Assembly (NCBI GenBank): GCA_017499595.2
Contig: CM039004.1
Span: forward strand, 496,001-560,000
Origin: Psilocybe cubensis
Lineage: Eukaryota
Direction of reading: 5' to 3'
Length of the DNA stretch: 64,000 bases
The notes below the pieces were generated by a model, which was not told the DNA's origin, did no database searches, and saw only the letters and a list, made by a program, of their open reading frames with translations. The position numbers and the translations under genes were made by a program. Within the stretch, counting starts at the first letter, position 1, and the number at the start of each line of letters is the position of its first letter. Below are positions 8,311 to 50,118 of the stretch, piece by piece.

Positions 8311-11300
8311 CTACACCTTTCCATGAGAAGCAATCAACACTGGGAAAATGAAATGGTTTGAAAGCTTGTCGAATGTGTATACAGCAAGGACTCACGGAAT
8401 GAAGTTCCGTCTCGCTTGATAGAGTACTATTTCAGGAATGAGAAACCAAAAAAGGGAATTAAAAAACAGAAATTCGAAGACTGACCTCAAAGTCGTCTCC
8501 ATCGAGGACTACGCAGTCTCCGTGGACAAGATATAAGGTCAATGATGACTTTGCGGCCTTGATAGATTTTTTGACCTTTGGTAAAGTGGCGGGTGCTTGA
8601 ACAGTCGGTTCATCCAAATTGACGCTGTGCGTGAGGTCACTAATCAAATTTCCAGAACTGTCGCCATTTATTTTGGGCAATTTTTGTGCAGCAGATAGTG
8701 ACTCAATGGACCGAGAAGTCAACGTCATGACAATATCGCAGCCAAAAGCGACAATGACGACACACTTCTCCTTCGCTCTTAGAATTTCTGGGCCCTGTTG
8801 ATACCACCGTAAAAGTGGCGAAAGCGGGGTGATCAAATACAAAAACCCACCTTTCTAACCCCTGCAGTGATCCATGCAAGCACCGTTAGTCGGTTGACGG
8901 AGATACGCGAGTCTTCAAGGCCGAATAAGAACCGGGCGGAGGAGAGCGAAGCCTTGGCTTCATTTATGCAATCAGGTACCTTGGGCCATGCCTCCGTTGT
9001 TGGGTCTTGCATCGTCTTTGGTGCCTTGGCTGAATAGCTAAAATAAGGTGCTTCAATTGGAAGGTTAGCAAAAATGAACCCGCATACAGACAAAAATCCT
9101 TACAACTATCATTGAAAGGCCGTTTCAATTCAACCTGCAACTGAATCTTATCTAGTAAGGTAGTCGCTTGTTTCTGTAATTCTTCAAAATTTCCAAGAAA
9201 AACATGTTTGATACTTGCTGTACCACTATCATCAAGTGGGTAGGTTATTGTTTGGACTCCATTTTCATGCCTTATAACCTTGGGTTCGACAGACTTAGGC
9301 CAAATGTCGTATGGTTGAGCTATCGGAAGCCGGTCTTGAGGGTCTCTCATAGAGAACAACTCAACCTTGTAGGGTTCCGCTGATGGTGGCTTATCCTAGG
9401 TTTAGTTAAGTTATGTGTAATGCAAACAGAGAAGACATGACACGTATTCAACGTACCTTACACGACGAACTGCCGCATATTCTGTGCCTTAATGCTGCCT
9501 GGTAATTTACCCTTCCACAATTGGCGCAAAGCCAACCTCGAGGAAATCCACTATCCAAAACAAACGGTCCAAACGGAGCCAGAAGTGAAATCGGTAGCAA
9601 ACTTTCATAGATAAGACGATAATGATCGTGTCGGAATTCGTACTCGTGGTTCGTAACTCGAGCCTGTCGATATTTAGGGGTGGTAGGATAATCATCTTCG
9701 GGGTCTGAAGGTGTCTGAGTAGCTTCTGCTAGAGACTCTTTGTCGGGTGAGTTTTGTTCCTCCAGTTCGGTTTTCTCGTCCTTGTTCAAATCTAGACGCT
9801 GAACCCACCATGGGTATTCCAACGTCAGCGGATCTGTGTCCGGCATGATGAATTCCTCGCCACCGGGACGCCATTGCAGACGGAAAAGCCATTTGACTTG
9901 ACCAGATACTGATTGTTGCTCTCCTTGTTGTCGATCACCGTCACTGGGTTCCAGAAGAGTTTCCTGGAAGTTTTCTTCAGAACAAATCCATTAAACAGCG
10001 TAAAGGTTATAGGTTTACCTGTATACCAACGATCCTGAAATATCCCATCATAGCATATGCTGCATCCCTCTTCAAGCGCAGCGACCACCGATTCAGGAGG
10101 TGTCCATACGATGCAATTAGTGTAAGTGGTGTCCCAGAAATGTAGCAGTCAATGATCATCTGAACTTCTGTAGGTAAAGTTGTAGGAATGACGAGAGGAT
10201 CATTTTGCAGAGTATCCGATGTTTGATTAGCCGTTTCAGACGTTTCTCCAGCTTCTACCGTCAATATGGGTTCCGATATCTGTTCAGAAATGGGGGATTT
10301 GTCGGCTACAGACGCCTGGACAGAAGCAGCGGCTCGAGAACCTTCAGGGGCAATAGCAGCTTGGGTTTCTTGAGAAGATTCAGGGGGATGCTTAGAACAA
10401 GTTTTTTGGGATGGCTCTGCTCCATTCTCTGCTACTTCCTGGGCATCCTCCTGATGCGAATGACCACCACAACTCTGACCCCTAATTGTACCAAAAACCT
10501 CCTGGGCAGGTTCCTCAATGAGCTCGCTGAGAAGAGGTTCTTCAGATCCGACTTCGGGTATTAAGCCACCATCTATCTCAACATCGGTGTTTATTGGTTC
10601 GTGCACAGTCTTTGTGTCTGGAGCAGACACTTTAACACCACCAGGTAAATTTATTGGAGGATTCGACTCCAAATCCTGGCCAGATTTCGTGAGGCCATGT
10701 CCTTCATTCTGCGGCAAAGAAACTGTAGCTTGGTCTCCTGCAACATTTCGGGGTACTTGCTTTAGAGAGGTCGATGGAAGTGGTAAAGGTCGAGGTAGTG
10801 AAGCCTGGGACTTGTCTTCGCCAGGTGGCACCTGCCCAGCCGTTGTTATAGGATACAAACTTTGAACGGGTGTGTTATGTAAAGGAATCCATACGCGTCC
10901 TGCTGGAGGTGTCATCGGCGAAAATTGTCCATATGGCATTATCCCTGATTGAAAGGGTATGCCCCAGTGATTTGAACTGGTAGCAAGCGCTTTATACGGG
11001 TTCGATTTCAAGGAAGAAGAGGTGGATGAGGTGTACATTGGTAATGGCGCATCGGTGAATTTGATTCGCCCAGAAGATTGTGGTTCGTCAGTCGGCATTG
11101 TCAACGGCAATTTTTGGTAAGGCGTCATTGGAATCCCTGGCCATGGGGTGTCATGGCAAGCATTCAGTTGGATATGGGGGTTTGAGTTCAATACATAATT
11201 ATGATGGTATACTTGTGGGGCGACATGAACAGAATGGGCTGGCCTCGGTGAAAGTGACGGAAGTGGCGGTTCGGACTCTTCTGTAGACCCAGGGTGTATT

Positions 11301-12586
11301 TTCTGTGCCGGGATACATTGTGATTGATCCATCGATACATCCATACTCGTCATTCCATCGGGTTCCATGCTAAATCGATACAATTCCTCCTCTTTTTTGA
11401 TGATTATCGCAGTAGGTTCAGTTTCTGGTATAGGCGTAGGGATTGAGATATCCTGAGTAGGCTGAGGAAGCTCATGTACGATTGGCTTTTCTTTAGGAGT
11501 TGAATGAGTAGGAGTTGGGTCTGTAATTATATTTGTCTGCGGTTTCTTGGGAGTGCCGTGGACAAATGAACGAGTCCTGATTATTGGTGATTGAGATGAA
11601 ACCAATATTAAATGATGATAAGACGCACGTAACGAGGTCAACAAACCCCACATCCGCATCGTCATGCGTAACTTGAAATGCCTTATTTGCATCGTCGAGC
11701 AAAAGAATCGGTGTCTGATAGTACTCCCAAGAAAGACCATTGATACAAGTCGACCCAGTAAGTTCCGGTAATGTTGAACGTAACTCGGCTTCACTCTGTA
11801 GGGGAGAGAAAATTAGAAAAGGTTTAATGTAGACATATGGAAACAACTAACACCAAACCATATTCTAGGTTGCTCCTTCGTTTCTGGAATGTTTGAAAGT
11901 GTACAACTTGGAAAAACTGGCAAAACTCTCCACTTCAGTGCAGAAGTGGTAAGAGTATCGTTTTCTGAAAGTATCTGTTAGATTACTGGTATCCGGACGC
12001 AGACAAAAACCACTCACCATTTCCTTTCGTTCCTTTTCCTTTCTTCTTAGGCGACTCTTTTGGCTTATTGTTTCCTACCTCAGCTACACTCTTAGCTGGC
12101 CTTCCTCGCTTCTTGGTTTGGCCTGGTTCGGCTGGCTCTTTTTTAGGTGAATTGGTTGCCGATCCAGCTACCGAATCTTTCAGCAAAACTTTCGAAGAAC
12201 GCTTCTTCTTTTTCGGGGTTTCCCTGTCGTCATTCTCATCCGAATCATCGAGTTCGGCGTATGTAGCTGGACCTTTTCCGGTTAGTGAAGCCTTTGAAGA
12301 ACGCCCTCTCTTTTTCGGGTTTCCTTCAACGCTTCCGTTCGTATTCAGAGGGTCATGCTCAGCTGTAGACGTGAACTCCTTGATTTTAACGCGTTTCTTA
12401 GGCCTTTCTTCACCAAGGTTGTCCTTTCTGGTACGCTTCCTAGCTAACAGTCCCGAAATGAGCCGAAAAACACAATGAAGAGGCTCAAGACATACTGGTT
12501 GGTGATGCCTTGATCTTTACTTCCACAAGTCCGGGAAGATGTGAGGAAGGCACTGTCTGCAGTTCTCCCTGGGCATCGTCTACCAT
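8311..12586 (-). CDS. Large nuclear-type protein with a split SRA/SAD-like region, Cys cluster and degenerate AlkB-like 2OG-Fe(II) oxygenase fold
   Basis: Lys/Arg-rich N-terminus (KKRGRP); QPRIWFG/SEAELRSTLP; PLTLIAS...YAMMGYFRIV; GWLCANCGRVN...CGSSSC; VVIVAFGCDIVMTL; LYLVHGDCVVLDG; spliced end YSIKRDGTSFLLIASHGKV*. Domain call is from recalled family motifs only. Confidence 0.6.
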
Positions 12587-14663: not shown

Positions 14664-14810
14664 GTCTGGAATGGTATAAAGGCTTGAATACACTCCTATA
14701 CCTCTTACTTCATAACCACTACAACCAAGCAACTTTCCAACGCAAACCAAACTCGCTTAAAGCAAATATCCAATTTTCAAACAAATATCTTATATCACTT
14801 GACATAGAAG

Positions 14811-16852
14811 ATGGCTATCCACGTTTCTATCGACTACGTCAAGGGAAGTTTCATGAGGGGGTTCGCTATCGCCAAGCCCGCCATGAACCTCCTCTCCGAG
14901 CGTCTGAACGAAGCTCGGGCATTTGAAGGCGGCACATCCAACACAGTCAAACCCGCCAAAGAAACCTCGATCCCTGCCCTCATCGAGCGCCACGGCCGCC
15001 TCGAGACAGCTGTGATCTGCGCTGCTGTCGAGCACATCGCCGGCGCCGTCCTCGCCCGCGACCACGGCGTGCGCGGGGCTATCTCGCGCACGCTGCCATT
15101 TGTCAGCGCCCGCGCGCAGGACACCTTCGACGGCGCGTGCGACTTCCTCATCGACAAGGCCCATACACTCGTCGATGCTGCCGTCAAGGTCCTCGAAGAC
15201 AACCTCGAGGCGGCTTCCTCTTCCTCAGCTGTCGTCCACACTGGTGTGCAGGCCGCGGACGCTGCTATGCAAAAGATCCTAGGCGAGACCTACGTCGAGG
15301 ACGCGAAGAATTACATCAAGGATCTCCCTATCCGCGCTCTGGAGTATTCCGTGGTCAAGGCCGTCGAGGTGTATGTGCCATGTGAGATCAAGGTTAACAG
15401 GATGAGGAGGAGGTCGACCGTGGCATCTGTTCTCTTCGAGGGTGCGGTCCGCTCGTCGTTCTTGGGCGTTTTGAGCGTTTCATCCTTCTTCGCCTTCACA
15501 CATGTCTACGCGATCTCCCTGGTCGACGATGAGGCAGAGGTCAAGGCGATTTCATCACAACCCTCCGACGACACTTCTTCTACTGTCGTCCCACGCAAGC
15601 GCTGGCGTCGCTCTGCTTCACTTTTCGTTTCCTCTCCATCAATCACTACACTCGACACCAGCAGCGATGTCCCCGGCGACGAGGGCGACATGGAGGACAA
15701 CGTCGACATCATCTCCTTTTCATGCAGTACCACGAGCGATTCGGACACCTGCACCGCCAATGTCTCCGGCTCCGATGCTTGTGTGGTTCAGGAGAAGTTC
15801 CAGGAGGAGGTCGAAGAGGAGGTAGCATTCAATTATGGGATTGAGGTCGACGGTCAGAAGGGCGGTGTTGAGAAGGATACAAATACGGTCGAGGAAGTCG
15901 GTGTCGACATTTTGGGGGATGGTGTAGGCCTTGAGGTTGTCGAGCCCGTCGTCCTTGTCACGGAAATTGTCAAGCCTTCCTATGGTCCAGTTCGATGCGA
16001 CGGCAACGGCGAGGGCGAGAGCATAGGCGCATATGATGGTGAGGACGAGGCTGAGGTTGACGGCGAATACGAGGACGAGATCATGGGCGAGGTCGAGCAT
16101 GAGGTCGAGGACGAGGGCGAGTGTGAGGTCGAGGGCGATGGTGCGAAGGTTGACGACGAAGGCGAATTCCTTCTTTATGATATGCTGGAAGGTGCGGCCA
16201 AGGACCAAGGTGTTGAGGCCATGGACAACATTTGCGTCGAGGGTATCAAGAACGCCACCGATATTGGAACCGACGACATCAGCAACGACGTCGATGGCGA
16301 AGTCGTTCTTCAAGAGGAGATGCAGATCTGCGAGGCGACCAGGAGAGATGGAGACGTCGGCTTTGGGCTCTTCCCTTGCGTTTCTGGTTGGCCGGCAACG
16401 AGTACTGTCGATATTATGTCCAGAACTCAAGCCACTTGCCAACCCCAGCCCACCAATGTCAACCGCTATGGTGTGGATGGTTCGCTTTTCCCAGTTGATG
16501 CCCAAAGCCACGTTTACCCTCCATCGATCTCCTCTTTGGTTACCCCTTTCGATCTCTTCGTTTCTTCAACATCCAACATCGACAACGCCTCGTCAGCTAT
16601 TTCCGATAGTACCCTCGACATCGACGCGATTATCGCCGACACCTGCATTAACAACACCCCCATTACCTCCTCTTTGGTTACCCCTTTCGTTTCTTTGACA
16701 TCCAACATCGACAACGCCTCGTCATCTATTTCCGATAGTACCCTCGACATCGACGCGATTATCGCCGACACCTGCATTAACAACACCCCCATTACCACCA
16801 CCATCTTGATCATCATCACTGATGCCGACACGACCAGCACTATTACCTCCAC

Positions 16853-16889
<37 letters not shown>

Positions 16890-18040
16890 AACCCCAAGAA
16901 CATCACCGACAAGAACACAATTACTATCATCATCGACGACAAGAGTTGCAACCAGTCCCTTGAAGTCGACACACCTACTATTAGAGAAATTTCGAATGAA
17001 CAAGGCGCATCTAAAATTCAAGGTTTACCTGTAAGTTTTTGCTGTTTCGCTTCTTCGTTGCACCATTGATTCTGATCATTTATGTTCATTTACAGGAGGC
17101 CGTTGACACTCAGGTATATCCTGAGGTATGTTCATTCAATTTTTTTTTATTCGTGCCCGTTATTGACTGTTCGCGTATAGGTTGAGGCCGAGGAAGGACG
17201 GGAGAAGACGGTGAGAGGAGCTCACCCGGCATTCGAGGCGGCAGTCGTAAGTCTTTCACTTCTCGAACTCGCTTTTCACAATTACTCATTCATCGTTCAC
17301 AGGAACAACTCGATCAGAGTCAGATCGAGGTACGTTCATTTTCTTTCTTATTCCGTTAACTGGTTCTCAAGTATTTTTTTTAGATCGACACCGTCCACGC
17401 CGCATTGGTCGGGGACGTATCCCGCGACTCGGTAAGTTCTTTTCTTCGAGTTTCGTAACCTATTCACTCACCTACTTCCTCTACCAGGAAGCTGAGGACC
17501 ACTTTGTGGTCCCCAGCTTCACGGTATCCATGCCCTGCCTCACGGCAGTGGCAGAATCAGCCTCATTCAAAGAGGCGCTCGTGTTCAACACGAGCGTCTC
17601 TTTTGATGGCAGGCTGGGCTCTGCCCAGGAGACTGTGGAGGTAAGTCATTCTTAGTATTTTCTTTTTTTTTGACCTTATTCTGATGCCTTCTTTTTTTTC
17701 TAGTCCGAGGGGGTATGCACGGAGAGGGACCCGGCGGCTACAACAAGCGTAGCCATGGGGGTTGAAGTAAGTTTCTTCTTTACTTTTTTTTCCACGCCTT
17801 TTCTGATGTTTATGTCAGCCCCCACACTCTTCCCTCACCGCCACCGCGGCGGCGTTTGTGCCTCGGGCACAAGCGCCGTCAAGTGCCGGTATCGCTGGTG
17901 TTGCCACACCGGCGCACTGGGCCCCGGCGCCGAGGGTGGCGGTCACCCTCGAGAAGCCGCCCGTGCGCAAGAGCCGCACCGCCTCGGCCACCGGGCGCCG
18001 GGCGCGCCACCTGGCGCTCATGGGAAAAGGGCCAAAGTAA
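14811..18040 (+). CDS. Orphan acidic low-complexity protein: long first exon plus seven further exons, with a PAM2-like motif near the C-terminus
   Basis: 752-codon ORF to a GTAAGT donor near 17031; following GT-AG introns are all phase 0 and keep the frame open to TAA at 18038-18040; SSLTATAAAFVPR. Confidence 0.65.
16529..16796 (+). repeat. Two-copy in-frame tandem duplication (~130-140 bp) inside the orphan ORF
   Basis: SSLVTPF...SNIDNASS.ISDSTLDIDAIIADTCINNTPIT occurs twice with near-identical DNA. Confidence 0.9.
16854..16889 (+). repeat. (GACAAC)n coding microsatellite (Asp-Asn repeat)
   Basis: About six gacaac units read directly. Confidence 0.9.
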
Positions 18041-33965: not shown

Positions 33966-36306
33966 TTAGTAGTGACGATGTGAACCCAAGTACTTGTCCA
34001 GCTTGCACATTTTATCCAAAGTCGCTATTTGTAGAGTGAGCGAGACACTTGACAATGACAGACATGGATTATACGCACGCGGAACGAAGCTCTGCTCAAT
34101 ACCCTTGATATCTTCAGCAAAGACAAGCGAAAGGCCCCTGTCAAATCATCGTTAGATACCCAAATACCGTCCAAACCACGTTGGACTTACATCTCCAAAT
34201 GCCAGTCAATATGACTTGAATAAAGCTTAGTTTACAGATGTTGAAGATGGTGTGAGATCACGAACCAATGCAAAAACCAGGGACCAGCGTTGTCAGTCAC
34301 GAACCGGATCGTGACTTTGTCGTTCGGACTGCCAGTTCCCATACTGACGACATCGCGTATGACTGGGTTACGGAAGTTATAGACGTCGCTGCCGGCGCTT
34401 CGAACAACGTGGAATGTATGCTGTACAAACAAAAAAAAATCAGCAAGCCATCAAACAACCATTAAAAAATAACGTACTCCGTGAAGATGGAAAGGATGCT
34501 GTATCGACGGCTGTCAGAAACAACTCGCTAATAAACCAAAATACTCACAGGGCTTCCGATGGCTTCTCCCGTCAGGACAAGCTCGATGACCTTGTTAGGC
34601 GGCAACTCGATGTACCCTCCCGGCTTCAAAATTTGCTGAGGCCTGTAAGCCTTGCTCGTGAGCTGCAAAAGCGTAGGAAGACTCGGAGTCTCGTATGTGA
34701 TATTGTTGATCAGCCACTCCTCAGCCACAGTATCCAACGAGACAAACAACGGCAGGTTCACATCCGCGTGGCCTGGAATAGGGATTCCCGGAGCCGGGAT
34801 ATTATGCAGTGGGTGTAGCTGCATCTCATCGAGCAATGGGAGAACCGGGACGACGTTTTTGGTTCTGGGATACGTCTCTGGAGCACCCACGTAGCGCAGA
34901 ATAGCAGAGTTGGCAAAGTTGGTAGTGCCAGCGTATCCGGCGCTCGGGATGGAATGGATCCAATAATTATCCTTGATCTGGTTGGCGTGCAGCACAAACG
35001 AATATCTCTGGCCTGCGAAAATGCGAAGAGCTTGAACCGTCACAGGCTTCACATTCTCTCCGTCGGCTTCGATGATGGTCTATTATCCCATTTGAGCGAC
35101 ACCTTGTACTGATATGGAAAGCACACCTACCATGTTATGTCCCCCGATAGAGAAATCGTAGAATGGGTCGCAAGACATTGAAATCAGCCTGAACCTGTAC
35201 CGCTTTCCCTGTTTTACGTTGATAACAGCGAGTGGGGTTTCAGTTCCGTTCTCCTGTCGGCCTAATCCGTTGATAAGATTAGAACCTGGAGCAGGGGGGA
35301 TGCCTCTAGGTACATCTTTAGCGTAGACATGATACCTATAGTCCGATGTTCAGCCAGTTCCGCACCCAAAGGTGCAGGGATACATACCAATCTGCGAGCG
35401 TAATGATAGTAGAATCTGAAGTCAAAGTTACTGAGCCATTCTTTGTTTTACTGCGAGTTCAAAAATGCATACCATCATCTACATCATATCTTCATCGATC
35501 GTGAGCTTTTATCCACCGTTGAGTAGAAAACAATACCTACAGGTGCTCGTGAGGGTCTTCTGGGTCATAGATGACCATGGGGCCTCTAAGTCCGTCGCAA
35601 TATTGAGTAGCTAACAAAATCAAGTTATATACAACATCTCTTCAACTTCAAGCCCACAAACGCAAGGACTCACAATGATGTGAATGGTACCAAAAAGTTC
35701 CCGCCTGATCCGGAACCTTGAATTGATAACGGAAAGAGTAATCCGGAGGGATGGGGCACTGCGTCACACCCACAGGCCCGTCCGCCCAACTGCTGTTCCT
35801 CTGGAAAAAGCCATGCCAGTGCTGTTGTTCATCGTATTCCGATGTTAGAATTATTCACAGTGATCAACACTATCAACCAAAAGGCACACACAATGCTGGT
35901 ATTCCTAAGCATCCGGTCGTCGTTGAGCTGGTTGATGACGTTGATATCGAAGGAGTCGCCCTGAAATAATCATTATGGCAGCAGTCGATGGCGAGTAGAG
36001 CATTGTGTGTATACCTTTTTTCCTTTAATTAATGGTCCAGGAAACTCAAGCGATACCTTCTTGCATGGCTCAGAATCTCCCGGAGCTCGTTCCGGATCTT
36101 CACAAGCTCCCGCTAGAGCAGCTCTAATAATGAACGCATTCAGCGATGTATATATCATTAAACGAAAGCTAAGCTTACGAGCGCCAATAACCATCCGGAG
36201 AAATCTTCTTATTTCCGATGTAGAGGTCCGAGGAAGGGCCTAGTACAGAGGAAAACGCACCAGTGGCCGCTACGAGGGTAAGCAAGAAAGTAGGAAGGGG
36301 CCGCAT
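33966..36306 (-). CDS. Laccase (multicopper oxidase AA1) A
   Basis: HWHGFFQ...[39 protein letters not shown] after splicing; signal peptide [19 protein letters not shown]. Confidence 0.93.
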
Positions 36307-37259: not shown

Positions 37260-39563
37260 TCAGTTGAACACTTGAGGTGGCTGTTCGTCGAATATTGGGC
37301 AAAGCTGATCAAACGAAGCTGAGTAAAACATGTCAGTATGATGGTACACCTTCTATTTTAAATAACGATGAGCTTACGTGGATGACGGCTTGAAGCAATA
37401 CCCGGAATGTTTTCTGCAAAGACGATTGCTAAGCCCCTGAATATTACAAGTGGATAAGTATGTGTACGCCCGGAATTTTAGATGACCCCTTACAATTGGA
37501 GATGCCAGTCAATGTGACTTGATTAAAAATAAATCAGGCAGCTGATAACAGAGGACACTCAATGGGCGTACCAGTGGAAAATCCATGGTCCAGCATTGTC
37601 TGTTACAAATCGAATGGTTACGTTGTCGCCTGCACTACCAAGGCTGACCACGTCGCGTATAACCGGATTGACATAGTTATCGACAGTGCTTCCAGCGCTC
37701 CGAATTACATGGAAGTTGTGCTGGGTAAATTATTATGAGCGTTTAAGCCGGCCTTAAATTGTATATGCATACCCCATGAAGATGGAACGGATGCTATTTA
37801 AATGCACGATGAGGACCACGATCGCTACGTAGATCGTATAAGAATAACTCACAGGGCTTCCAGCAGCGCCACCAGGTAAAGAAACTTCAATGACCTTGTT
37901 AGGAGGCAAGACATATACGTCGCCTTCCGGGAGGAGTTCCTGTGGCGTATACTTCTTGCTCAAAATCTGCAGAAGCACTGGCAAGGAAGGCGGCTTGAAA
38001 GTGGCGTTATTCACATTGAAAGCTGTTCCGTTGAATTGAATGTTGAGATTAATATTAACATCAGCGGCTCCGCGCTGTGCGACACCGGGAACGCCGCCAT
38101 TAGAAAGAGGATGGAGATTAGTTTCCAATAAAGGATTGTTAGTCGAAAGAGTAGTGTTTGGATCCACGGCAGGAGTTCCGACGTAGCGTAGAATGGCAGA
38201 GTTAATACCTCCATCGAATCCTATCGCAGCTGCAAGGTTTGGGTTGGCACGGATCCAGTAACTTCCCCTAGGTTGATTAGCATTCAACACAAAGGAGTAC
38301 CTTTGACCCGCAAAGATCTGAAGAGAATCAACTACGAGAGGCTGGACGTTCACACCATCTACTTCGATGACGGTCTGTTCAAAAATTAGTGAAGATTTCA
38401 GAGAGAGATAAATTACTCTACGTTACGCACCATGGTATGACCGTCAATGCTAAAGGTAAAGTTGGGATCACACGACATCGAGACTAAACGGAAGCGGTAG
38501 CGCTTTTTTGGCACGACTGTAATAACCGCCAGTGGGGAGGCAGGCCCGCCGGCAAAGCGACCAAGACCGTTGATCAAGACTGAATCTGCCTTAGGGATGA
38601 GTCCAGCTGAAGGCGATGGCGTATGGTACCTGTCAAACACAGATAAACATGGTCAATCAAACTCCTTCAATTCTGAAAATGTCTGATCGAACCAATCTGA
38701 AAGAGTAATTATAGTCGACTCTAAAAGCGTTTGGATCAGATGAAAGTGGATAATAGATCATACCATGTGGTCGGTGGCTTACCGTCGTCAATATCGTATC
38801 TAAAGCTGGAATTAGCGCCACTGTCGATTTTCAATCAACGTCAAGCTTACCTGGATTTATGCGGATCATGTGGGTCATATACAACCATTGGACCTCTCAG
38901 GCCGTCGCAGTACTGGGCGGCTAGCAAACGTAATTGGTTTCAATAAGTTGAACAGAATGAAGACAGGTGTTGAATTAAGCCACCGTAATGAGAGTGATAC
39001 CAGTAGGTCCCCGCCTGATCCGGAGCCCTAAACTGATACAAGAACGAATGTCCAGAAGAGATAGGACATTGGTTTACTCCAACTGGGCCATCTGCCCAGC
39101 TGCTGCCTTGTTGAAAAAATCCATGCCAATGCTAACAATGGTAATCATTTCAAGTAATGAGAGCGAAAGATTGTAATGCAACTTACGATACTTGTACCCG
39201 TCAACATAGTCGTATCGGTTAATTGATCAACAACATTGATGTTAAAAGGATCTCCCTAACAGAAAAGATTGTATCGGTGGTCAGCAGAATCATACGACAT
39301 TGAGCATTACAGAACTACCTTTTGGGCAGTAATAGCTGGCCCCGGGAACTGGAGTTTGTTAGAAGAAGCACCTGCAAGGACAGCACTAAAAGTAAAAGCC
39401 TATTTAGCAAGAAAATCAAACTTTCAACAGTGAAAGCGTACGAGCGACTGAAACCGTCAGGTGAGATGACCTTGTTCCCGATAACTAAATTCGTCGAGGG
39501 TCCAAGGGCAGCAAGTGCACCAGATATAGATAATAGCAAGATAAACCTAGAAGCTGAAGACAT
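37260..39563 (-). CDS. Laccase (multicopper oxidase AA1) B
   Basis: [44 protein letters not shown]; ends [16 protein letters not shown]. Confidence 0.95.
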
Positions 39564-42500
39564 AATAATAAGCAAGTTTTGCAAAGAAAAACTTCCAATG
39601 AGCGAAGTCGTGAAGAAATCTTCGCCTTGAAGCACACTTTTATATCGCGTCATGCGTAATAGGTGTACATTTATAGCAAACCAAAACCCAAAATGACAGA
39701 TTGATAAAGAACAACATCAAAGGCTCACGTCTGAGATGATTAATACCATGTCCAAGCAGCAGTGGATCGATTAATAGGGTTGAGTGGGTAGATCGTATCG
39801 AAAAATAGCATCCCATTACTCACACACAACATTTTAGACAAGTCTGCCTTGAAAAGAAGCAGACGATAGGATGTAGCAAATATGCTGATGGACACAGGGG
39901 AAGCAAAACAGGTTCTCGCATTGAGTTTGTTCTTGTACTGGCCGGTTAACGGGTCTCCCTCTCCCTCCCGATTACCATGGCCCATGCTTCGCATCTTCTT
40001 CCGTGGAACTTGAGAAGTATCCACACCTCTAATGAACAGCTTTTCCAAGCGCTCCAAGGGCGGCCATTTCAACTCAAGAAGTCTCGAACGAGACACGATT
40101 TCCCTGTAAACATGTACGCACAACTACATAAGTGATTACAGCGGACGGAACAAATAAGCACTGAACTTACACAAAACAGGTACACCAAGATAACCCCTGG
40201 ACTGGATTGACGTAAAAGACGTCGTCCGGGACCGATGGTCGCATCATTTGCATTTTAAAGAACACCATCTCCGTTTGTCCTTTGGCGCGCTTGATCTAAC
40301 ATTGAAAACTCCCACAAAGTGATTGATATAGATGGTTTTTGCGCATTGGAAGTAGGGTGTATATGGTGCAGAAGGGTCTGTTTCTGGGATCACGGGGCCC
40401 CATGCCGAATGCTTACGTTCGCATTGCCATCTCTCCCCCAGAAGATTGCACACATGTGGCGTAGAGGCCGACTTCTAGCCTTGATATTGAAAGCTGAGAT
40501 ACCTGGATATACATGCGACTCAGGGCTCGCCACTCGGCTTTATACGCTCCCGAGATGAGTCCAGGACGAACCTAGGTCAATGTACCCAATTCCAACAAAG
40601 CTCCATTTGCATCGCAGCGATATCGTTGAGTGATGAGTGATCGCGGAAATCTGCTTATTGATTGAGTGTCCCATGGTCTTCCGCTTCTTCCAATACGTAT
40701 TTCGTACCACAATGCAAGTGTGTAAGACGCTGCAGCACTGCAGGAGCTATTCAGGATTCAGGATATCGGAAACTAACATACCATAGCCGTAGCTTTCTGG
40801 TTTTGTCGTTATGCGACATGCCTACATAATATCTTTTAAGATGCACCGTGGTTGTGGTCATTGCGCGTCGGGTGGAAAGATCCGGGACATAAGAACAAAA
40901 TGAATGGAGTCGTGTGGGCGGCCTCGCACAGCTCAAAGATAGAAGGATTCTCTACAATGATTAAACTGTTTTTGTCATACATTACATAGAAGGACGTATG
41001 TTGACGATCTCGCACCTTGAGGACATCGGAAGAAGGAGATTTCAGCCGTATACGCGTAAACCCCGCAGCTGATATGTATAAGGTACACCTGGGTCCAACG
41101 GTTCGCCATCAAGTGCACGAAAGAAGGACAAATGTCCAAAATACTGTCTTCGTTGTCCAGGCCATCACATTCGATGACTCGTCGATGGAGTGTTTCAGTT
41201 GTATTGAAGATGCTGTGCTGTCCAGGTTCTCCTTGTCATATATGAAACTTTGGTTGTCCGTCCGTATCGATTGTTTTGACGGAAAGCCGTATACGACGAA
41301 GGATGCTAGGTCGAGAACGTAGTTACTCGCGCACATTGAATAGGAGTACAATGGTGGAAATGATTGAGATTGGAAGACGCTAAGCGCTACTTGAGTGTAA
41401 ATGTCGATGAAATCTGGGTTGGAAGGCTATATGCTTCATTCAATAGTCAAATAAAGATATGGCAATGGTGTGATTGTGCGCGTTGGTACATCCACAAAAC
41501 GACCCAAAATCCTCAGCCATTCTGTTGTTTAAAGAGGAGATCAAGCGGAGTTTCTGGCGGTTCGATTCAGAAGGTTTCTCCCACTTTCTTATCCCAATCA
41601 TTCAAACTAAATGTTCCTCTCTACTCAAAACACCTGAAATGCATACGCTTGAACTGTCGATGGCGTATTGACTGAAATACCTGTTGAGGCCATGTGTTCA
41701 CAATGACAGCAAGGTGTCAATCACTGACAATACGCGCAAAGTTCAAACACACTAATGTTACCAGTCTCGACTAAGGCTGGATCGCATTTCCCCTGAATCT
41801 ATATGACTCAGAAGCAGTTCCATAACCTCATACATTGAGGTGTAGGCGTTCCACCAAAGCTACAGTAATCCATTCATACCATCCCGTAAACCAAGTTCAA
41901 TGAAACCCCCCAACCTCCTTGATCTACAACCCCGTAGCTGCGCCCATGTGTGTTTTTTGGGTGTCTGCAGCACCGGGTATCAAAGACATGGCCTCGACCA
42001 GTTACGTTCTTTCATGCGGCATCGGCGGTGCCACCCGAGACGATTTTCTGGGTGTTTACACCACCCGGCCGGGGAGATTATACCGATGAAAGAAGGTTCT
42101 GTGAATGGTATGTACCTTGAATCATTCTGCAAATATTCCAAAATGATTTCAAGGTATACCGTGGACCTTGTTTGTCGAATATACATCACAATTACGCAGC
42201 TTTCGGTGCCAGCCTGCGAGAGTCCACAAAGGCCAACGGAAGTTAATTCAACGTTTTCTGTTTCTTTTTAGTTCACGAATGGCATCTATAGCGTTGCCAC
42301 GGTAGCATCTCGCCGCAATCCTGATTAATGAAAAGCAATTGCCATCGGTCTCAGCGATCCAATGATGCATCACCGAGAAATTCTCAACAGTGATGTTCTT
42401 CGTCATACTAGTATGTAACAGCACAACTCGGGTCTGGAAGACGGCCCAATGGGCGACCTTGCTCTTGATTCACTCATACTTGGATTTTCTAGACCAAAAA

Positions 42501-44966: not shown

Positions 44967-45840
44967 TAAACACCTTGTGAAGCCTAGATCGCTACCCCAA
45001 TTCCGCGATGCTCATGCTACGCCCATAGCCGCTCAGCTTCGTATGCACTGTCCCAGGGTGACGTGGCTTACGAACCTACGACTGGATCCTTTGACGCTCG
45101 GTTGCCACTGATCAAGGTTTCTTTGCATCCAAGTTCTTCTATTTACATACGGGCAATCAATCAACCTTGCCCATTAATCATCACCTCTATCTTACGACTT
45201 ACACTGGGTTAATTGAAGCTCTTCCAGAGCGCCAAACAGAATAGTATTGGTCGCATCATCCAGCGCCATCATTCAGTTTGTATAATCATTGCTTTCGAAT
45301 GTTGCCACATTTAAAAAAGGTCTTTTTGCTGCTCACATCTATGTATAACATATGACAATTTAATCAGATTGCAACAGGCTTGCCATCTGTCCTTGCATTT
45401 CCTACTTGCACTGCATAGTAACGGCTCGTCCCTTTCTCTAGATTTCGAGTCATGTACACTTTTCGCAACTGAGATGCTGAGTCGACAACAGGCCTATCAG
45501 CTGCCACGCTTCATCTTATATCCATGCAGTAAAGCTGAATACGGTTACTACACACATGCCTATTCTTCGAAGCAGCTTTTCGGGATGTCCAACGGAATCC
45601 ATTCTTCACTTTATGCGCCCATTGGTTGAGCAATGATTTTGCGACGAAGTCTAGAAATTTAGACGAAAAATGGAAATATTCGGATAAATTGGGACCGATC
45701 AATTGCAAAATTCGGATTCAAACACCTAATAAATTGGAATAAATTCGCTGGGATTAGTTTGTCCAGGCAAATTGACGCCTTGACCTTGCCCAATAACATT
45801 CATCTTCCAAGCAGCATTTGACTTTTCTTCCATTGTCGAA

Positions 45841-47208
45841 ATGACTTCGAAGCCTATTTCTCGAGATGACCTTCTGGTGCTCCTTTCCTCCATGGGCGTT
45901 GTTCTTCCCAAAGATAACAAATTACCTGAAGAAGAGCTCAACAAGCGGCTTAAAGAAGCCCTAGACACATCGCAGGAGTATTCGGATGTCATCAAGAAGG
46001 AACCTGTAGACCCTCTGTCCCTGCCTAAATGGTCTTCAGAGGAGAAAACTTTATATCAGGCGTCGCAGAGGGACAGCCTGTTGGAAAATTTAGGCGCTTC
46101 TTTTCCATCAAACGCTGTCTCTTTGGCGAAGGAGTATACCTTCAAGGAAATGAAGCAGACTCTACTAGGCGTTGCGTATACATATGACTTGGGCGTTAAA
46201 GAGATCTCATTTTTGACCCACGACGATACGTGGGGTATCTTTATCAGGGTGCGTCGCGTTAATCGTGAACGGGGTTATAGTATGACAGCTCATATATGCG
46301 CACTAGATAATTGGCGTTTACTGTCTCAAAAACGACATCCCCTTGACTTACATCCTATACAAAGAACTAAAGCCCACATCGGACACGCCTCTGGATGTTC
46401 TTCGTCGTCAAGTCCGTCTAGAACAGGACGATGTTACTTCACGGATCAGTGACCTTGAGGGACGTGCAATCCTAACGCTCTTTGAGCAGAATGGCGCGAG
46501 GCTTGACCCAAAATTGCTCCAACTTGCTGAAAGCCAAACAGTAAAACATTCGGGTTTCCGACCTTCGTTTATCCTCCCACTCTGTCCAATCAACATGCGC
46601 AATCTAGGAAGCCTGACTAAGGATCCTGGATGCGAAGTGTGCGGAAAGAAAACTACGTCTCGTTGTGTGCAATGTATGACGGCCGTATATTGTAGCAAAG
46701 GTGCGTGTTGGTAATTGTTCATTGACTTGAGCACCTGTTTTGACTAAATACTTATCTTGTGTTTGCAGAATGTCAGCGAGAAGATTGGCGAACTCACAAG
46801 TCGGCATGCAAATCAATGAAAGGGGGTTCATGGCACCCTATCACTGTCACCACGACTATGCCTGGAATGCCAAGTGGAGGTTTTTTATCGAACATCAACA
46901 CCCGCGACTCGTTGCACAGACATCCTCGCACTCAAAAAATTCCCTCAATTCCCAATTCCCAGGGGACTAAAATTTTCCTTGCCAAATTCCAAGTACCACT
47001 CGGGAATACGGCCTCACAAATGATGATATACGATAGACAGAAGGACTTTCAAGTTTTTTGGATGAGGAACACCAATCCTAAGCTTTTTGACGAGGCACAC
47101 AGATCCATGCAAGGGCGAATGAAGATGTACAGGTGGATGAAGCGAATTTCTGACAACCAGTACGCAATCTGCCTCGACCGTGCGCCAGAGCAAGACCCCC
47201 TGTGGTAG
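45841..47208 (+). CDS. MYND zinc-finger protein, paralog 2
   Basis: Same exon structure and motifs as paralog 1: CEVCGKK..SRCVQC...YCSKECQREDWRTHKSAC; CLDRAPEQDPLW*. Confidence 0.85.
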
Positions 47209-47534
47209 ATTTGATCGACAATCATTGTATATCTGGGACATTCATTCATTTTTTCGCTCAGCATTGTATTCTCCCTGGCTGTTATCGCACGCGCATATGT
47301 TTAAACTTTTCCTATTGTCACTGTAATCCAACTGTAATCGAACCCTCTGTTTTCGCGTTTTTGATCAACACACCCCTATCTATAGTTTTCGCGTCAATTT
47401 TGTGAGACCGAATGGATTACTGTGTCCGCGCGTCCGCCGGACATCCGCCGGACAGACTCACGTGACTACCTCGTCACGTCGCGTCTCAATGTACATTGCG
47501 CGCGCTCTCGCGCGCTTTGTATATATACTCAACA

Positions 47535-47675
47535 ACCCTAAAAACTAATCCCTAACCCCTAATCCCTAACCCATAATCCCTAACCCCTAATCCCTAACCC
47601 CTACACCCAACCCTAAACTACCTAATCCCAACCCTAAACTACCTAATCTAATTAATTAATTAATCCAACCCTAAG
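47535..47675 (+). repeat. Degenerate interstitial telomere-like tract (CCCTAA / TCCCTAA / CCCCTAA units)
   Basis: aatccctaacccctaatccctaacccataatccctaacccctaatccctaacccctac...accctaaactacctaa read directly. Confidence 0.9.
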
Positions 47676-47703
47676 AAATAAAACAAACTGCTAAAATATA
47701 TCA

Positions 47704-48152
47704 AGCACTGGAGTGGTGAGATTGAAACTAATAATTCCACCACTGCAGTGGTATAAGTTATGTAGACAATTTCACCACTTCAGTGGTACAAATCATGTGC
47801 ACTGTTCTAGCACTTGAGTGATATAAGATACATTCTAAATGTTACCACTCCAGTGGTGTAGAAATTATAAAAGTAGCAATAATTACTATTCTTAGCATTG
47901 TATTTATTCTATCTGACACACAACTATGACCACTGCAGTGGTGGAATACAACAAGTCAATTTCAGCACTGAAGTGGCAAACTCCAACATATTAATTTCAC
48001 CACTTCAGTGCTGATATTAACTTGCTACATTCCACCAATGAAGTGGTCATACTTACATGCTGTACTTGATCACTGGAGTGACCAAATTTACATGTCGGAT
48101 TTGACCACTTCAGTGGTGAAAACTAACATGTCAATTTCACCACCGCGGTGGT
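47704..48152. repeat. Array of 12 palindromic 14-bp repeats (consensus ACCACTnnAGTGGT) with 21-nt variable spacers, 35-bp period
   Basis: Repeat starts at 47704, 47739, 47774, 47809, 47844, then 47929, 47964, 47999, 48034, 48069, 48104, 48139. Confidence 0.93.
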
Positions 48153-48390
48153 CACGTGGGTCACGTGCTGTCCGCCGGACACTCCGTCCGGCGGAAATTA
48201 TGATTATATTAATCCATTCTATCTGAATTTTGTCGAGTTCGGATCCAATACATAATCGGATCAAATGTGCACGACGCCCGTCGATCACTCTTCTGAGTAC
48301 GACATTTGGATAAGCGAACCGCCACGAACATTTTCCAGACCAGCTATCAGCTTTTTCATTTAATACTCATTTCCTTCCAGAGTTTTTACA

Positions 48391-49766
48391 ATGTCGTCAA
48401 ACGATATTTCTCGAGATGAGCTTCTCCTTCTTCTGTCCTCTATGGGCGTCGTTCTCGCTAAGGATAACAAACTGCCCACAGAGGAACTAAACAGGAGATT
48501 CGGAATGGCTCTGAATACTGCTCAGGAACTGTCGGATGTCGTAGACAAGACACCCATAAACCTTGCTTCATTACCGAGATGGACATCGCAAAAGACACTG
48601 TTCGACGCTACAAAACGAGGAAGCCTGACCGAAGCGTTGGTGGGATATATGTCTCAACCGAAGAAAGGATACCTCTCACCAAAGGAGGAAATTTTCAAAG
48701 AAATGCGTCAAAGTGTTCTTCTCATGGCACATGTGTGTGATGTTGGCCTGAGAGATATATGTTTCTTGACTGAAGGGGATGAGTTGGGAATCTTCGTTCG
48801 GGTACGTACGTGGCAAACAGTATTGATTGCAGTGTAAACGCTCAATCGGTTTCGACAGATAATGGATGTCCTTCGCATAAAAGATGGCGTTCCGCTTTAT
48901 TATTTCGTCTACCGAGAACTGGTTCCCACACCTGACACGCCCATGGATGCACTCATTGACGGTATAGGCGTCGACAGAACGCTTATCAAAACTGGAATCA
49001 GCGATCTCGAAAGGCGTACACTTCTAAGACTGTTTCGCAAAAATACGAAGAAGCTCGACCCCAAAATTATCGCAATGGAACGAGATGCACAAGGCAAGGA
49101 GACGGGTCACCATCCATCATTTGTCCTACCACTCTGCCCTATTGCGATGCGCAATCTGGGAAAGCTTACCAACAATCCCGGTTGCGAAGTGTGCGGGAAG
49201 AAAAATACCAGCCGTTGCATGCAATGCATGTCGGTGGTTTATTGTAGTAAACGTGAGCTTTCTAAGTTGTTTTTTTCTGGGACGGCTTTTTACAGCTTCA
49301 CTCAGAGTGTCAGAAGGAGCATTGGCAGACGCACAAGGAAACCTGCAAATCAATCAAGGGAGGAACTTGGCATTCCATCACAGTACAAGAGCCGGACATG
49401 GGGCCGCCTGAGCTAAATTCTATAGTGAATCGTCTGGAGTCGATGCACAATCCTCAAACTGCAGGCATAAGCCCCTCAAATAACGGGATCCCTCCCGACG
49501 TCCATGGAGGAAAGGTGTTCCTCGCCAAGTTCCAGGTATCGCTGACCTATGATAACTACGGAATTTTAGCCCCAGATATGTTAGTTTATGACAGGACCAG
49601 GAGCTTCCGTTTTTTCTGGAAAAGAAGGTCTAATCCGCGATTGTTCGCGGAAGCGCAGAAAATGATGGGATCCAAGTTGAAGTTTTATAGGTGGGTGCGG
49701 CGAACAGGTGACTATCAATTTGATCTTTGCATCGATAGAGCGCCGCGAGAGGATCCTCTTTGGTAG
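48391..49766 (+). CDS. MYND zinc-finger protein, paralog 3
   Basis: ISRDELLLLLSSMGVVLAKDNKLP; CEVCGKKNTSRCMQCMSVVYCS; MLVYDRTRSF...CIDRAPREDPLW*. Confidence 0.85.
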
Positions 49767-50118
49767 ACATCATCAATATCTTCATATATATAGTGAATCT
49801 AGGTATAAGTTAAATGCTTTAAAAATGCACATGCCTATTAACTCCGCTAAACACTAAAGATGGTTCAAAGTTTGTTCAAAATACATAACACTCTCACAGA
49901 TTGCATCAATCACCCATTTATAGTCATTAAGTTTCCTAAACAGGATCATCTTCTGATTGGATTGCCTGATGATGCTTGCATAGATATCAAAGACGAAAAG
50001 CATTAAAGATAAAGCAGATAAATCAATATATTGGTACCAGTTATATTCTCCATTCGAAATACTACGAATATTGATCAACGTTTCTGATCCTTAACCATCC
50101 TGCAGAAGAAGAGGTTTA

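Follow-up and report, generated by a model that had tools for sequence, protein, structure and literature searches.

Introduction

In the CACTA element En/Spm, 12-bp TnpA motifs are distributed over the subterminal regions in direct and inverted orientation, and the inverted pairs are bound as dimers. The TIR of Muta1, a foldback-type MULE of Aedes aegypti, is composed of a terminal motif and nine subterminal tandem repeats, and a larger number of repeats leads to more transposase binding and more excision; its non-autonomous derivative, Muta1NA1, carries three repeats on the left and seven on the right (PMC5499845). For the hAT element Hermes, BED domains bind the subterminal repeats, with cooperative binding on a quasi-palindrome, and the phasing of the sites has to be exact (PMC10368747). 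In Galileo, a Foldback-like element of the P superfamily, THAP sites are located in tandem repeats within the TIRs (PMC3688188). MarorhAT-4, -11 and -12 of Marasmius oreades are gene-less elements of ~600 bp, which are active and owe their mobility to an autonomous relative whose TIRs match theirs (PMC9674265).

Superfamilies are characterised in part by their target-site duplications (TSDs) and ends. The hAT elements usually make an 8-bp TSD (PMC12730594, PMC5499845), MULEs have TIRs of more than 100 bp and TSDs of 8–10 bp (PMC5499845), Zisupton (KDZ) elements, reported from Agaricales, have an 8-bp TSD, and CACTA elements have a 2–5-bp TSD and CA..TG ends (PMC12730594).

The DNA analysed here, referred to as the window, is a 64-kb stretch of the Psilocybe cubensis genome. 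It contains a non-coding 822-bp element whose right half is occupied by an array of short palindromes at a 35-bp period. Here, we describe the array, the mobile element to which it belongs, and the readings that may account for the conservation of the palindromes.

Results

Organisation of the 822-bp element

The features of the locus are as follows, in coordinates of the window.

47404–48225, plus strand: the whole non-autonomous DNA transposon, 822 bp (read-depth edges, ends, no long ORF).
47396–47403, no strand assigned: left copy of the 8-bp TSD, AATTTTGT (direct reading).
48226–48233, no strand assigned: right copy of the TSD, AATTTTGT (direct reading).
47404–47480, plus strand: left end, with the 16-bp terminus GAGACCGAATGGATTA, TCCGCCGGACA twice (47433–47454), CACGTGAC (47459–47466) and the degenerate half palindrome GACTACCTCG (end alignment, repeat searches).
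47498–47527, plus strand: an 18-bp G+C palindrome, GCGCGCGCTCTCGCGCGC, followed by TATATATA (direct reading).
47530–47690, plus strand: telomere-like block of 10 CCCTAA hexamers, mostly as 7-mers CCCTAAY (14-bp period, 4.2 copies; 21-bp period, 2 copies).
47704–47857, no strand assigned: array block 1, units 1–5, 35-bp period (direct reading, motif scan, unit alignment).
47894–47907, no strand assigned: candidate decayed unit AGCATTGTATTTAT, sharing the phase of block 2 (match at 7 of 12 positions).
47929–48152, no strand assigned: array block 2, units 6–12 (direct reading, motif scan, unit alignment).
48150–48225, minus strand: right end, with GGTCACGTG twice (48150–48167), TCCGCCGGA-type motifs (48169–48195) and the terminus CAGATAGAATGGATTA (end alignment, repeat searches).

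The left flank of the element (47404–47480) aligns to the reverse complement of 48150–48225, and the termini GAGACCGAATGGATTA and CAGATAGAATGGATTA are identical at 13 of 16 positions. Inward of the termini, each end carries two TCCGCCGGA-type motifs and then two GTCACGTG-type motifs, so that the inverted similarity, which is imperfect, spans ~75 bp including the 16-bp termini. At the equivalent spot, the left end has GACTACCTCG and the right end has GACCACCGCG, suggesting that each end probably once had one such palindrome, of which the right one was amplified. The last unit of block 2 is ACCACCGCGGTGGT, which abuts the right-end motifs. Between the two ends, the order is the G+C palindrome, TATATATA, the telomere-like block, an A+T-rich stretch and the array.

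Several features of these parts are recorded here in their own right. The dyad-symmetric motifs TCCGCCGGA(CA) and GTCACGTG, each duplicated, are located at 47433–47480 and 48150–48195, and presumably resemble the CGG-pair and E-box sites of dimeric fungal factors. The telomere-like block consists mostly of alternating CCCTAAC and CCCTAAT 7-mers, all on one strand, and its length varies among copies, as shown by 59- and 69-bp skips and a 9-bp deletion at 47639. Just upstream of this block, the combination of GCGCGCGCTCTCGCGCGC and TATATATA looks promoter-like in its sequence.

No ORF of at least 100 aa (stop-to-stop) was found inside the element; the stop-to-stop ORFs overlapping the 822 bp are of 73–92 aa only and run through the repeats. 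Among the 23 ORFs of at least 180 aa in the window, none matched a transposase family in Pfam. These results indicate that the element is non-autonomous and that its partner transposase is encoded elsewhere in the genome.

Twelve palindromes are arranged at an exact 35-bp spacing

Direct reading of 47400–48500 identified 12 palindromes of the ACCACTnnAGTGGT type, spanning 47704–48152, and their start-to-start spacing is exactly 35 bp in 10 of the 11 intervals. The sole off-period interval, which is 85 bp from 47844 to 47929, splits the array into blocks of five and seven. A scan of the 64-kb window with ACCACTNNAGTGGT, allowing up to two mismatches, yielded 15 matches versus 2.03 expected, a number reached in none of 100 shuffles. 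Eleven of these 15 matches fall at 47704–48152, and the twelfth member of the array is the unit at 48069, ATCACTGGAGTGAC, which has three mismatches to ACCACTNNAGTGGT. The same scan found no perfect palindrome site outside the array in the window. The counts and the shuffles agree with the initial annotation, which had described 12 copies or near variants of a palindrome at 35-bp spacing in blocks of five and seven with one 85-bp gap; the array is a real pattern and not a product of chance.

The initial annotation had also suggested a possible decayed unit within the gap, at 47894. The phase of this candidate fits that of block 2, which makes it plausible; 7 of its 12 specified positions match, a score reached by 1.3% of the window positions, and a 15-bp phase break is left. 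The 35-bp array was absent from the output of Tandem Repeats Finder, as would be expected because the units are so diverged, and a separate repeat search picked up 8 of the 12 units (family D1).

Arrays of this kind were also sought in other collections. A loose three-unit pattern gave 31 loci in a metagenome scan, and ACCACTNNAGTGGT was present in none of the 31; these loci were rejected as relatives, being mostly homogeneous 35-bp minisatellites with a spacer identity of at least 0.8. A two-unit pattern gave nine loci in prokaryote genomes and one in viral sequences, and none of the 10 was an array: nine loci hold an inverted pair of GC-rich hairpins, a bacterial feature, and the remaining locus holds a GC-rich repeat. 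The end-motif pattern gave two chance matches in viral contigs, both in coding-looking DNA and without palindromes. As a side observation, loci L032–L039 and L041 (e.g. L033:2850-2975) carry an inverted pair of ~90 bp, GGGAGCGCGCCACTCCAGTGGCGC ... GCGCCACTGGAGTGGCGCGCTCCC, in Reyranella- or Rhodospirillales-type genomes and one viral contig. Judged by its sequence, this pair looks like a bacterial REP-like hairpin element, unrelated to the array.

The palindrome arms are conserved whereas the spacers are diverged copies of one sequence

Conservation was measured on a gap-free alignment of the twelve 35-nt units, which consists of 12 arm columns, two central columns and 21 remaining columns. 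The mean pairwise identity between the units is 85% for the arms, whereas it is 39% for the two central bases and 39% for the spacers, compared with an expectation of 26% from composition. None of 10,000 random sets of 12 columns was as conserved as the arms. These values bear out the earlier description of a palindrome that is well conserved while the spacers diverge. In addition, the 10 linkers between units at the 35-bp spacing contain no indel. The half-site variant AGCACT/AGTGCT is seen four times, three times on the left arm and once on the right, and this recurrence is consistent with each half-site being recognised on its own, with a second position that tolerates change. The twelve units thus amount to a natural mutagenesis series, in which the kept positions are A.CACT / AGTG.. 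and the register is kept as well.

For the 21-nt spacers, the mean identity is 41% over all eleven and 49% within block 2, compared with 29% for shuffled spacers, and none of 5,000 shuffles matched the observed values. Their consensus, GAAATTTAACAGGTCAATTTC, is itself roughly dyad-symmetric. By this alignment, all spacers go back to one 21-nt sequence from which they have decayed, and they were not acquired. Since the spacers are homologous, the units derive from a single duplication series in which the arms were preserved; the array is an old tandem duplication series that has kept its 12-base core and its register.

The initial annotation had likened this layout to CRISPR or TIGR guide arrays. 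The likeness lies in the layout only, in which a short conserved palindrome alternates with variable sequence of fixed length, and the comparison failed on the spacers, which are related to one another as diverged copies of one sequence. Moreover, the array is part of a transposon of ~10 copies, and no Cas, Nop-domain or transposase family was matched in Pfam by the 29 ORF translations scanned from the window, in line with the earlier remark that no Cas or Nop-domain gene is visible. CRISPR arrays are not known to have a 35-bp period with 14-bp repeats, and TIGR-Tas arrays lie close to a gene for a Nop-domain Tas protein and have spacers built of two parts. A CRISPR array was thus rejected on the related spacers, the missing Cas match and a host that is eukaryotic, with GT..AG introns of 58 and 68 nt, and a TIGR-Tas array on the missing Nop-domain match and on spacers that are one decayed sequence. 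We consider the probability of a CRISPR- or TIGR-like guide array in this eukaryote to be practically negligible. An apparent CRISPR-like array in a eukaryote is thereby removed from the list of oddities, and a conserved palindrome with drifting linkers of fixed length can be the subterminal repeat array of a transposon.

The element is a polymorphic insertion of a dispersed DNA transposon

Public sequencing runs were aligned to 46000–49800 at 80% likeness. For the raw DNA reads of run X15, which is from another strain, the depth was ~47 on both flanks and ~480 inside the element, as measured in five bins lying wholly within it. This ratio corresponds to ~10 copy-equivalents at a likeness of at least 80%. 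The reads lose their match at 47403/47404 (52 + 190 reads) and at 48225/48227 (141 + 51 reads), and the consensus agreement of the loose read ends is just 0.42–0.58 at both edges, indicating that the copies are inserted next to many unlike sequences.

Contigs of runs X8 and X9, from two other strains, exhibited an empty site with a single AATTTTGT, in which 47403 is joined to 48252; the 14 letters between the two sides match 48234–48247 at 12 of 14 positions, as judged by eye. The left flank differs from the contig of run X9 at 26 of 1404 letters, and both runs still carry the element at other places. Empty-site reads were not seen in run X15. The spliced run X10 gave no reads on the element, and its strain may lack the insertion.

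The polymorphic insertion, together with the TIRs and the 8-bp TSD, identifies a cut-and-paste DNA transposon, and the strains differ in carrying or lacking this insertion of a dispersed, non-autonomous member of the class that appears to have moved recently. As the window and the reads of one strain have the element at this site and two other strains do not, such insertions are possible markers, and a transposition tool for the fungus could use the family as a small substrate of natural origin.

The differences of the reads and contigs from the window in 46000–49800 are dominated by C>T and G>A, which account for 79 of the 160 differences among the places listed for run X15. This excess could result from deamination of methylated cytosines in the transposon copies; polymorphisms of the flanks are pooled in the count.

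Copies of the array vary in unit number

In the run data over 3.8 kb, four small indels reached 10% of the reads and none of them lies in the array, at a depth of ~500, where the threshold is a coarse one since a single copy in ten sits at it. Among the variants listed, the array has lost 105 bp (47998 to 48104) in one case and gained 105 bp in another, each corresponding to three units between identical arms, and skips with less clean ends measured 103, 246 and 43 bp. In addition, a diverged relative shares only 48139–48181 with the element, and its read consensus (30 letters, 57 reads, agreement 0.99) has a palindrome arm that ends 21 letters before unit 12, which is the same 35-bp phase with another linker.

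These observations bear on the reading that the array is neutral cargo, i.e. an old minisatellite whose arms stayed alike through a mutational or repair bias of palindromes, such as fold-back templated correction or slippage between identical arms, and not through selection on binding. Spacers that are decayed copies of one unit, and a unit number that varies by recombination between identical arms, as in the 105-bp skips and gain, would both be expected for such cargo, and two symmetric double changes preserve the dyad. Internal tandem repeats are, moreover, common in non-autonomous elements (PMC4596501, PMC7492417). Conversely, arms at 85% identity against spacers at 39%, with 10 linkers free of indels, are hard to explain without constraint, seven one-sided changes stayed uncorrected, and the diverged relative has the same phase with a different linker. 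We regard neutral cargo as unlikely.

A processed hairpin RNA gains no support from the arm changes

The initial annotation had proposed a processed hairpin RNA as one cause of the conservation; in that case, read-through transcripts would fold into long hairpins and be diced to small RNAs that silence the family. The segment 47916–48125 folds at -86.5 kcal/mol (z = -10.2), with none of 200 shuffles folding as well, and Rfam gave a sub-threshold resemblance to miRNA precursors, the best hit scoring 45.4 bits against a gathering score of 140. However, any array of palindromic units folds in this manner, long hairpins need pairing between units, a single unit amounts to a 6-bp stem with a 2-nt loop, and all 17 Rfam hits lie below their gathering scores.

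The changes in the arms also give no sign of selection on an RNA stem. Of the 72 arm pair cells, 65 pair and seven are broken; two are compensated (T:A in unit 10 and C:G in unit 12), and no wobble-preserving change was found. As many doubly changed pairs were seen in 15 of 500 shuffles, and 74 of 500 shuffles pair as well as the observed units. The compensated changes are at most a hint, taken from the alignment, that the dyad is kept. The hairpin RNA proposal thus found no backing in the pairing pattern, and we consider it highly improbable.

The element lies between two MYND zinc finger genes

The element sits between two tandem MYND zinc finger paralogues, at 45784–47208 and 48391–49766 (Pfam), of which the DNA stretches are 71–73% alike. 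A spliced contig of run X10 supports the upstream gene, with GT..AG introns of 58 and 68 nt, and its match ends at 47376. The element starts 28 bp past this transcript end and, counted from its last base, stops 165 bp short of the ATG at 48391.

This position is relevant to the reading that the palindromes, CACGTG, TCCGCCGGA and the CCCTAA-type motifs bind dimeric proteins of the host, so that the element would act as a mobile enhancer, insulator or chromatin boundary. All classes of motif in the element have either dyad symmetry or a telomere-like sequence, and these motifs may resemble known host-factor sites; the copy in the window is 165 bp upstream of the ATG of one gene and 28 bp after the transcript end of another. 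The absence of any perfect site elsewhere in 64 kb of gene-dense DNA argues against this reading, and we judge it to be very unlikely. If true, such a platform would aid the expression or survival of the element and could rewire nearby genes.

For the rest of the window, blastn gave chance matches of up to 24 nt only and no other copy of the element. A 14-nt match at 41862 was rejected as a second copy, since there is no element structure around it. An ESM Atlas search with the first exon of the neighbouring gene gave a best score of 0.75 and no lead. Two ORFs resembling hydrophobin first exons matched no Pfam family, and the hydrophobin identity was dropped. Two long uninterrupted ORFs, at 10007–11812 (minus strand, 601 aa) and 14808–17069 (plus strand, 753 aa), had no Pfam family at E <= 0.001. 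The ORF fragments at 34528–35079 and 37754–38422, both on the minus strand, match Pfam Cu-oxidase (multicopper oxidase), and by this match are probably parts of tandem laccase-type genes.

Discussion

Proposed role of the palindromes in transposase binding

We infer that a protein binds the palindromes and that this protein is the family's own transposase, which would dock at the subterminal region of a gene-less transposon. Phased sites for a dimeric protein, such as a transposase, had been one of the two suggestions of the initial annotation; we favour this reading since the DNA transposon is mobile and the array makes up its subterminal part, and we consider it rather likely. Transposase binding to repeated sites in the ends has precedents in Muta1, Hermes and Galileo. 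In this scheme, the element would be mobilised in trans, the gene for its transposase being located elsewhere in the genome. Both ends present the 16-bp terminus and then the paired dyad motifs TCCGCCGGA and GTCACGTG, and at the right end the innermost palindrome, ACCACCGCGGTGGT, would have been amplified in tandem with its 21-nt linker to 12 units. During the spread of the family, mobility may have persisted in copies that retained both 6-bp half-sites and the 35-bp register, while the linkers drifted freely. The palindromes would most likely bind transposase dimers or two DNA-binding domains, and many weak sites together could provide specific, cooperative loading at the end.

Some of the observations argue against binding of the transposase. 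The palindromes are found at one end only, and the coexistence of copies with three units fewer or more shows that the unit number is not tightly fixed. With 12 sites over 450 bp at a 35-bp period, the array exceeds typical subterminal repeats in both length and regularity. In addition, the compensated double changes in units 10 and 12 hint that the dyad symmetry is kept, which independent half-site binding does not require.

A more elaborate possibility is that selection maintains the array as a strictly phased lattice of dimer sites. Such a lattice might seed a higher-order oligomer of the transposase at one end of the element, whose fungal family would be an undescribed one, or it might attract dimeric host factors in concert with the CACGTG and telomere-like motifs. 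The 35-bp period is ~3 1/3 helical turns, which brings every third site back to one face of the helix after 105 bp. We consider such a lattice possible but doubtful. If it exists, the element would spread ready-made protein-binding platforms into the promoters of a mushroom-forming fungus.

Comparison with known transposon families

The element exhibits the features of a class II TIR transposon, namely inverted termini, a fixed TSD that is single in the empty site, dispersed copies and no internal transposase gene. MITEs are usually shorter than ~800 bp, of high copy number and homogeneous; the element, at 822 bp and ~10 copy-equivalents, is MITE-like only. Its 8-bp TSD fits hAT, MULE or Zisupton, as judged from the sequence of the site; the TSD of Galileo is 7 bp. 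hAT elements have short TIRs starting with YARNG and a target of nTnnnnAn; here, the terminal bases are CAGAT on the right and GAGAC on the left, a partial fit to YARNG, and AATTTTGT fits nTnnnnAn on neither strand. An autonomous hAT partner would encode a transposase with a BED finger, a DDE/RNase H domain and a hAT dimerisation domain. For MULE, the 8-bp TSD fits, and the inverted similarity of ~75 bp, which is imperfect, is short. Membership in CACTA / EnSpm / Plavaka is ruled out by the 8-bp TSD and by the termini GAGACC... and ...ATCTG.

The literature searched describes neither this element family nor any fungal transposon with a palindrome array at a 35-bp period; the family may yet be catalogued in Repbase or in supplements to papers. 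The initial annotation had itself named a match to a described subterminal repeat of a transposon, with no RNA product or binding protein, as one finding that would refute it. As to kind, the array is such a repeat; for the family itself, no description was found.

The element shares parts of its architecture with several described systems. Like En/Spm, it carries many copies of a short motif in a subterminal region. It resembles Galileo in the tandem repeats with multiple sites in the ends, for which specificity through multiplicity has been proposed; Galileo differs in its very long symmetric TIRs and is an animal element (PMC3688188). With Hermes, it has in common the short TIR, the many subterminal sites, the palindromic pairs and the asymmetric ends. 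The Hermes sites are 4-bp AAGT motifs at irregular spacing, of which only two pairs are palindromic (PMC10368747), whereas the element has 12 regular palindromes. MarorhAT-4, -11 and -12 are, like the element, gene-less DNA transposons of a mushroom-forming fungus; the likeness is one of description only, and the available part of their descriptions mentions no palindrome array (PMC9674265).

Muta1 also resembles the element, having a TSD of 8 or 9 bp, a short terminal motif and then a subterminal array of repeats with linkers, and Muta1NA1 has unequal numbers of repeats at its two ends, as the element does. In Muta1, the repeats are 12 bp, nearly identical, separated by 3–4-bp linkers and present in both TIRs (PMC5499845). 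In contrast, the element has a 35-bp unit with a 14-bp palindrome core and decayed linkers, and its array is located at one end.
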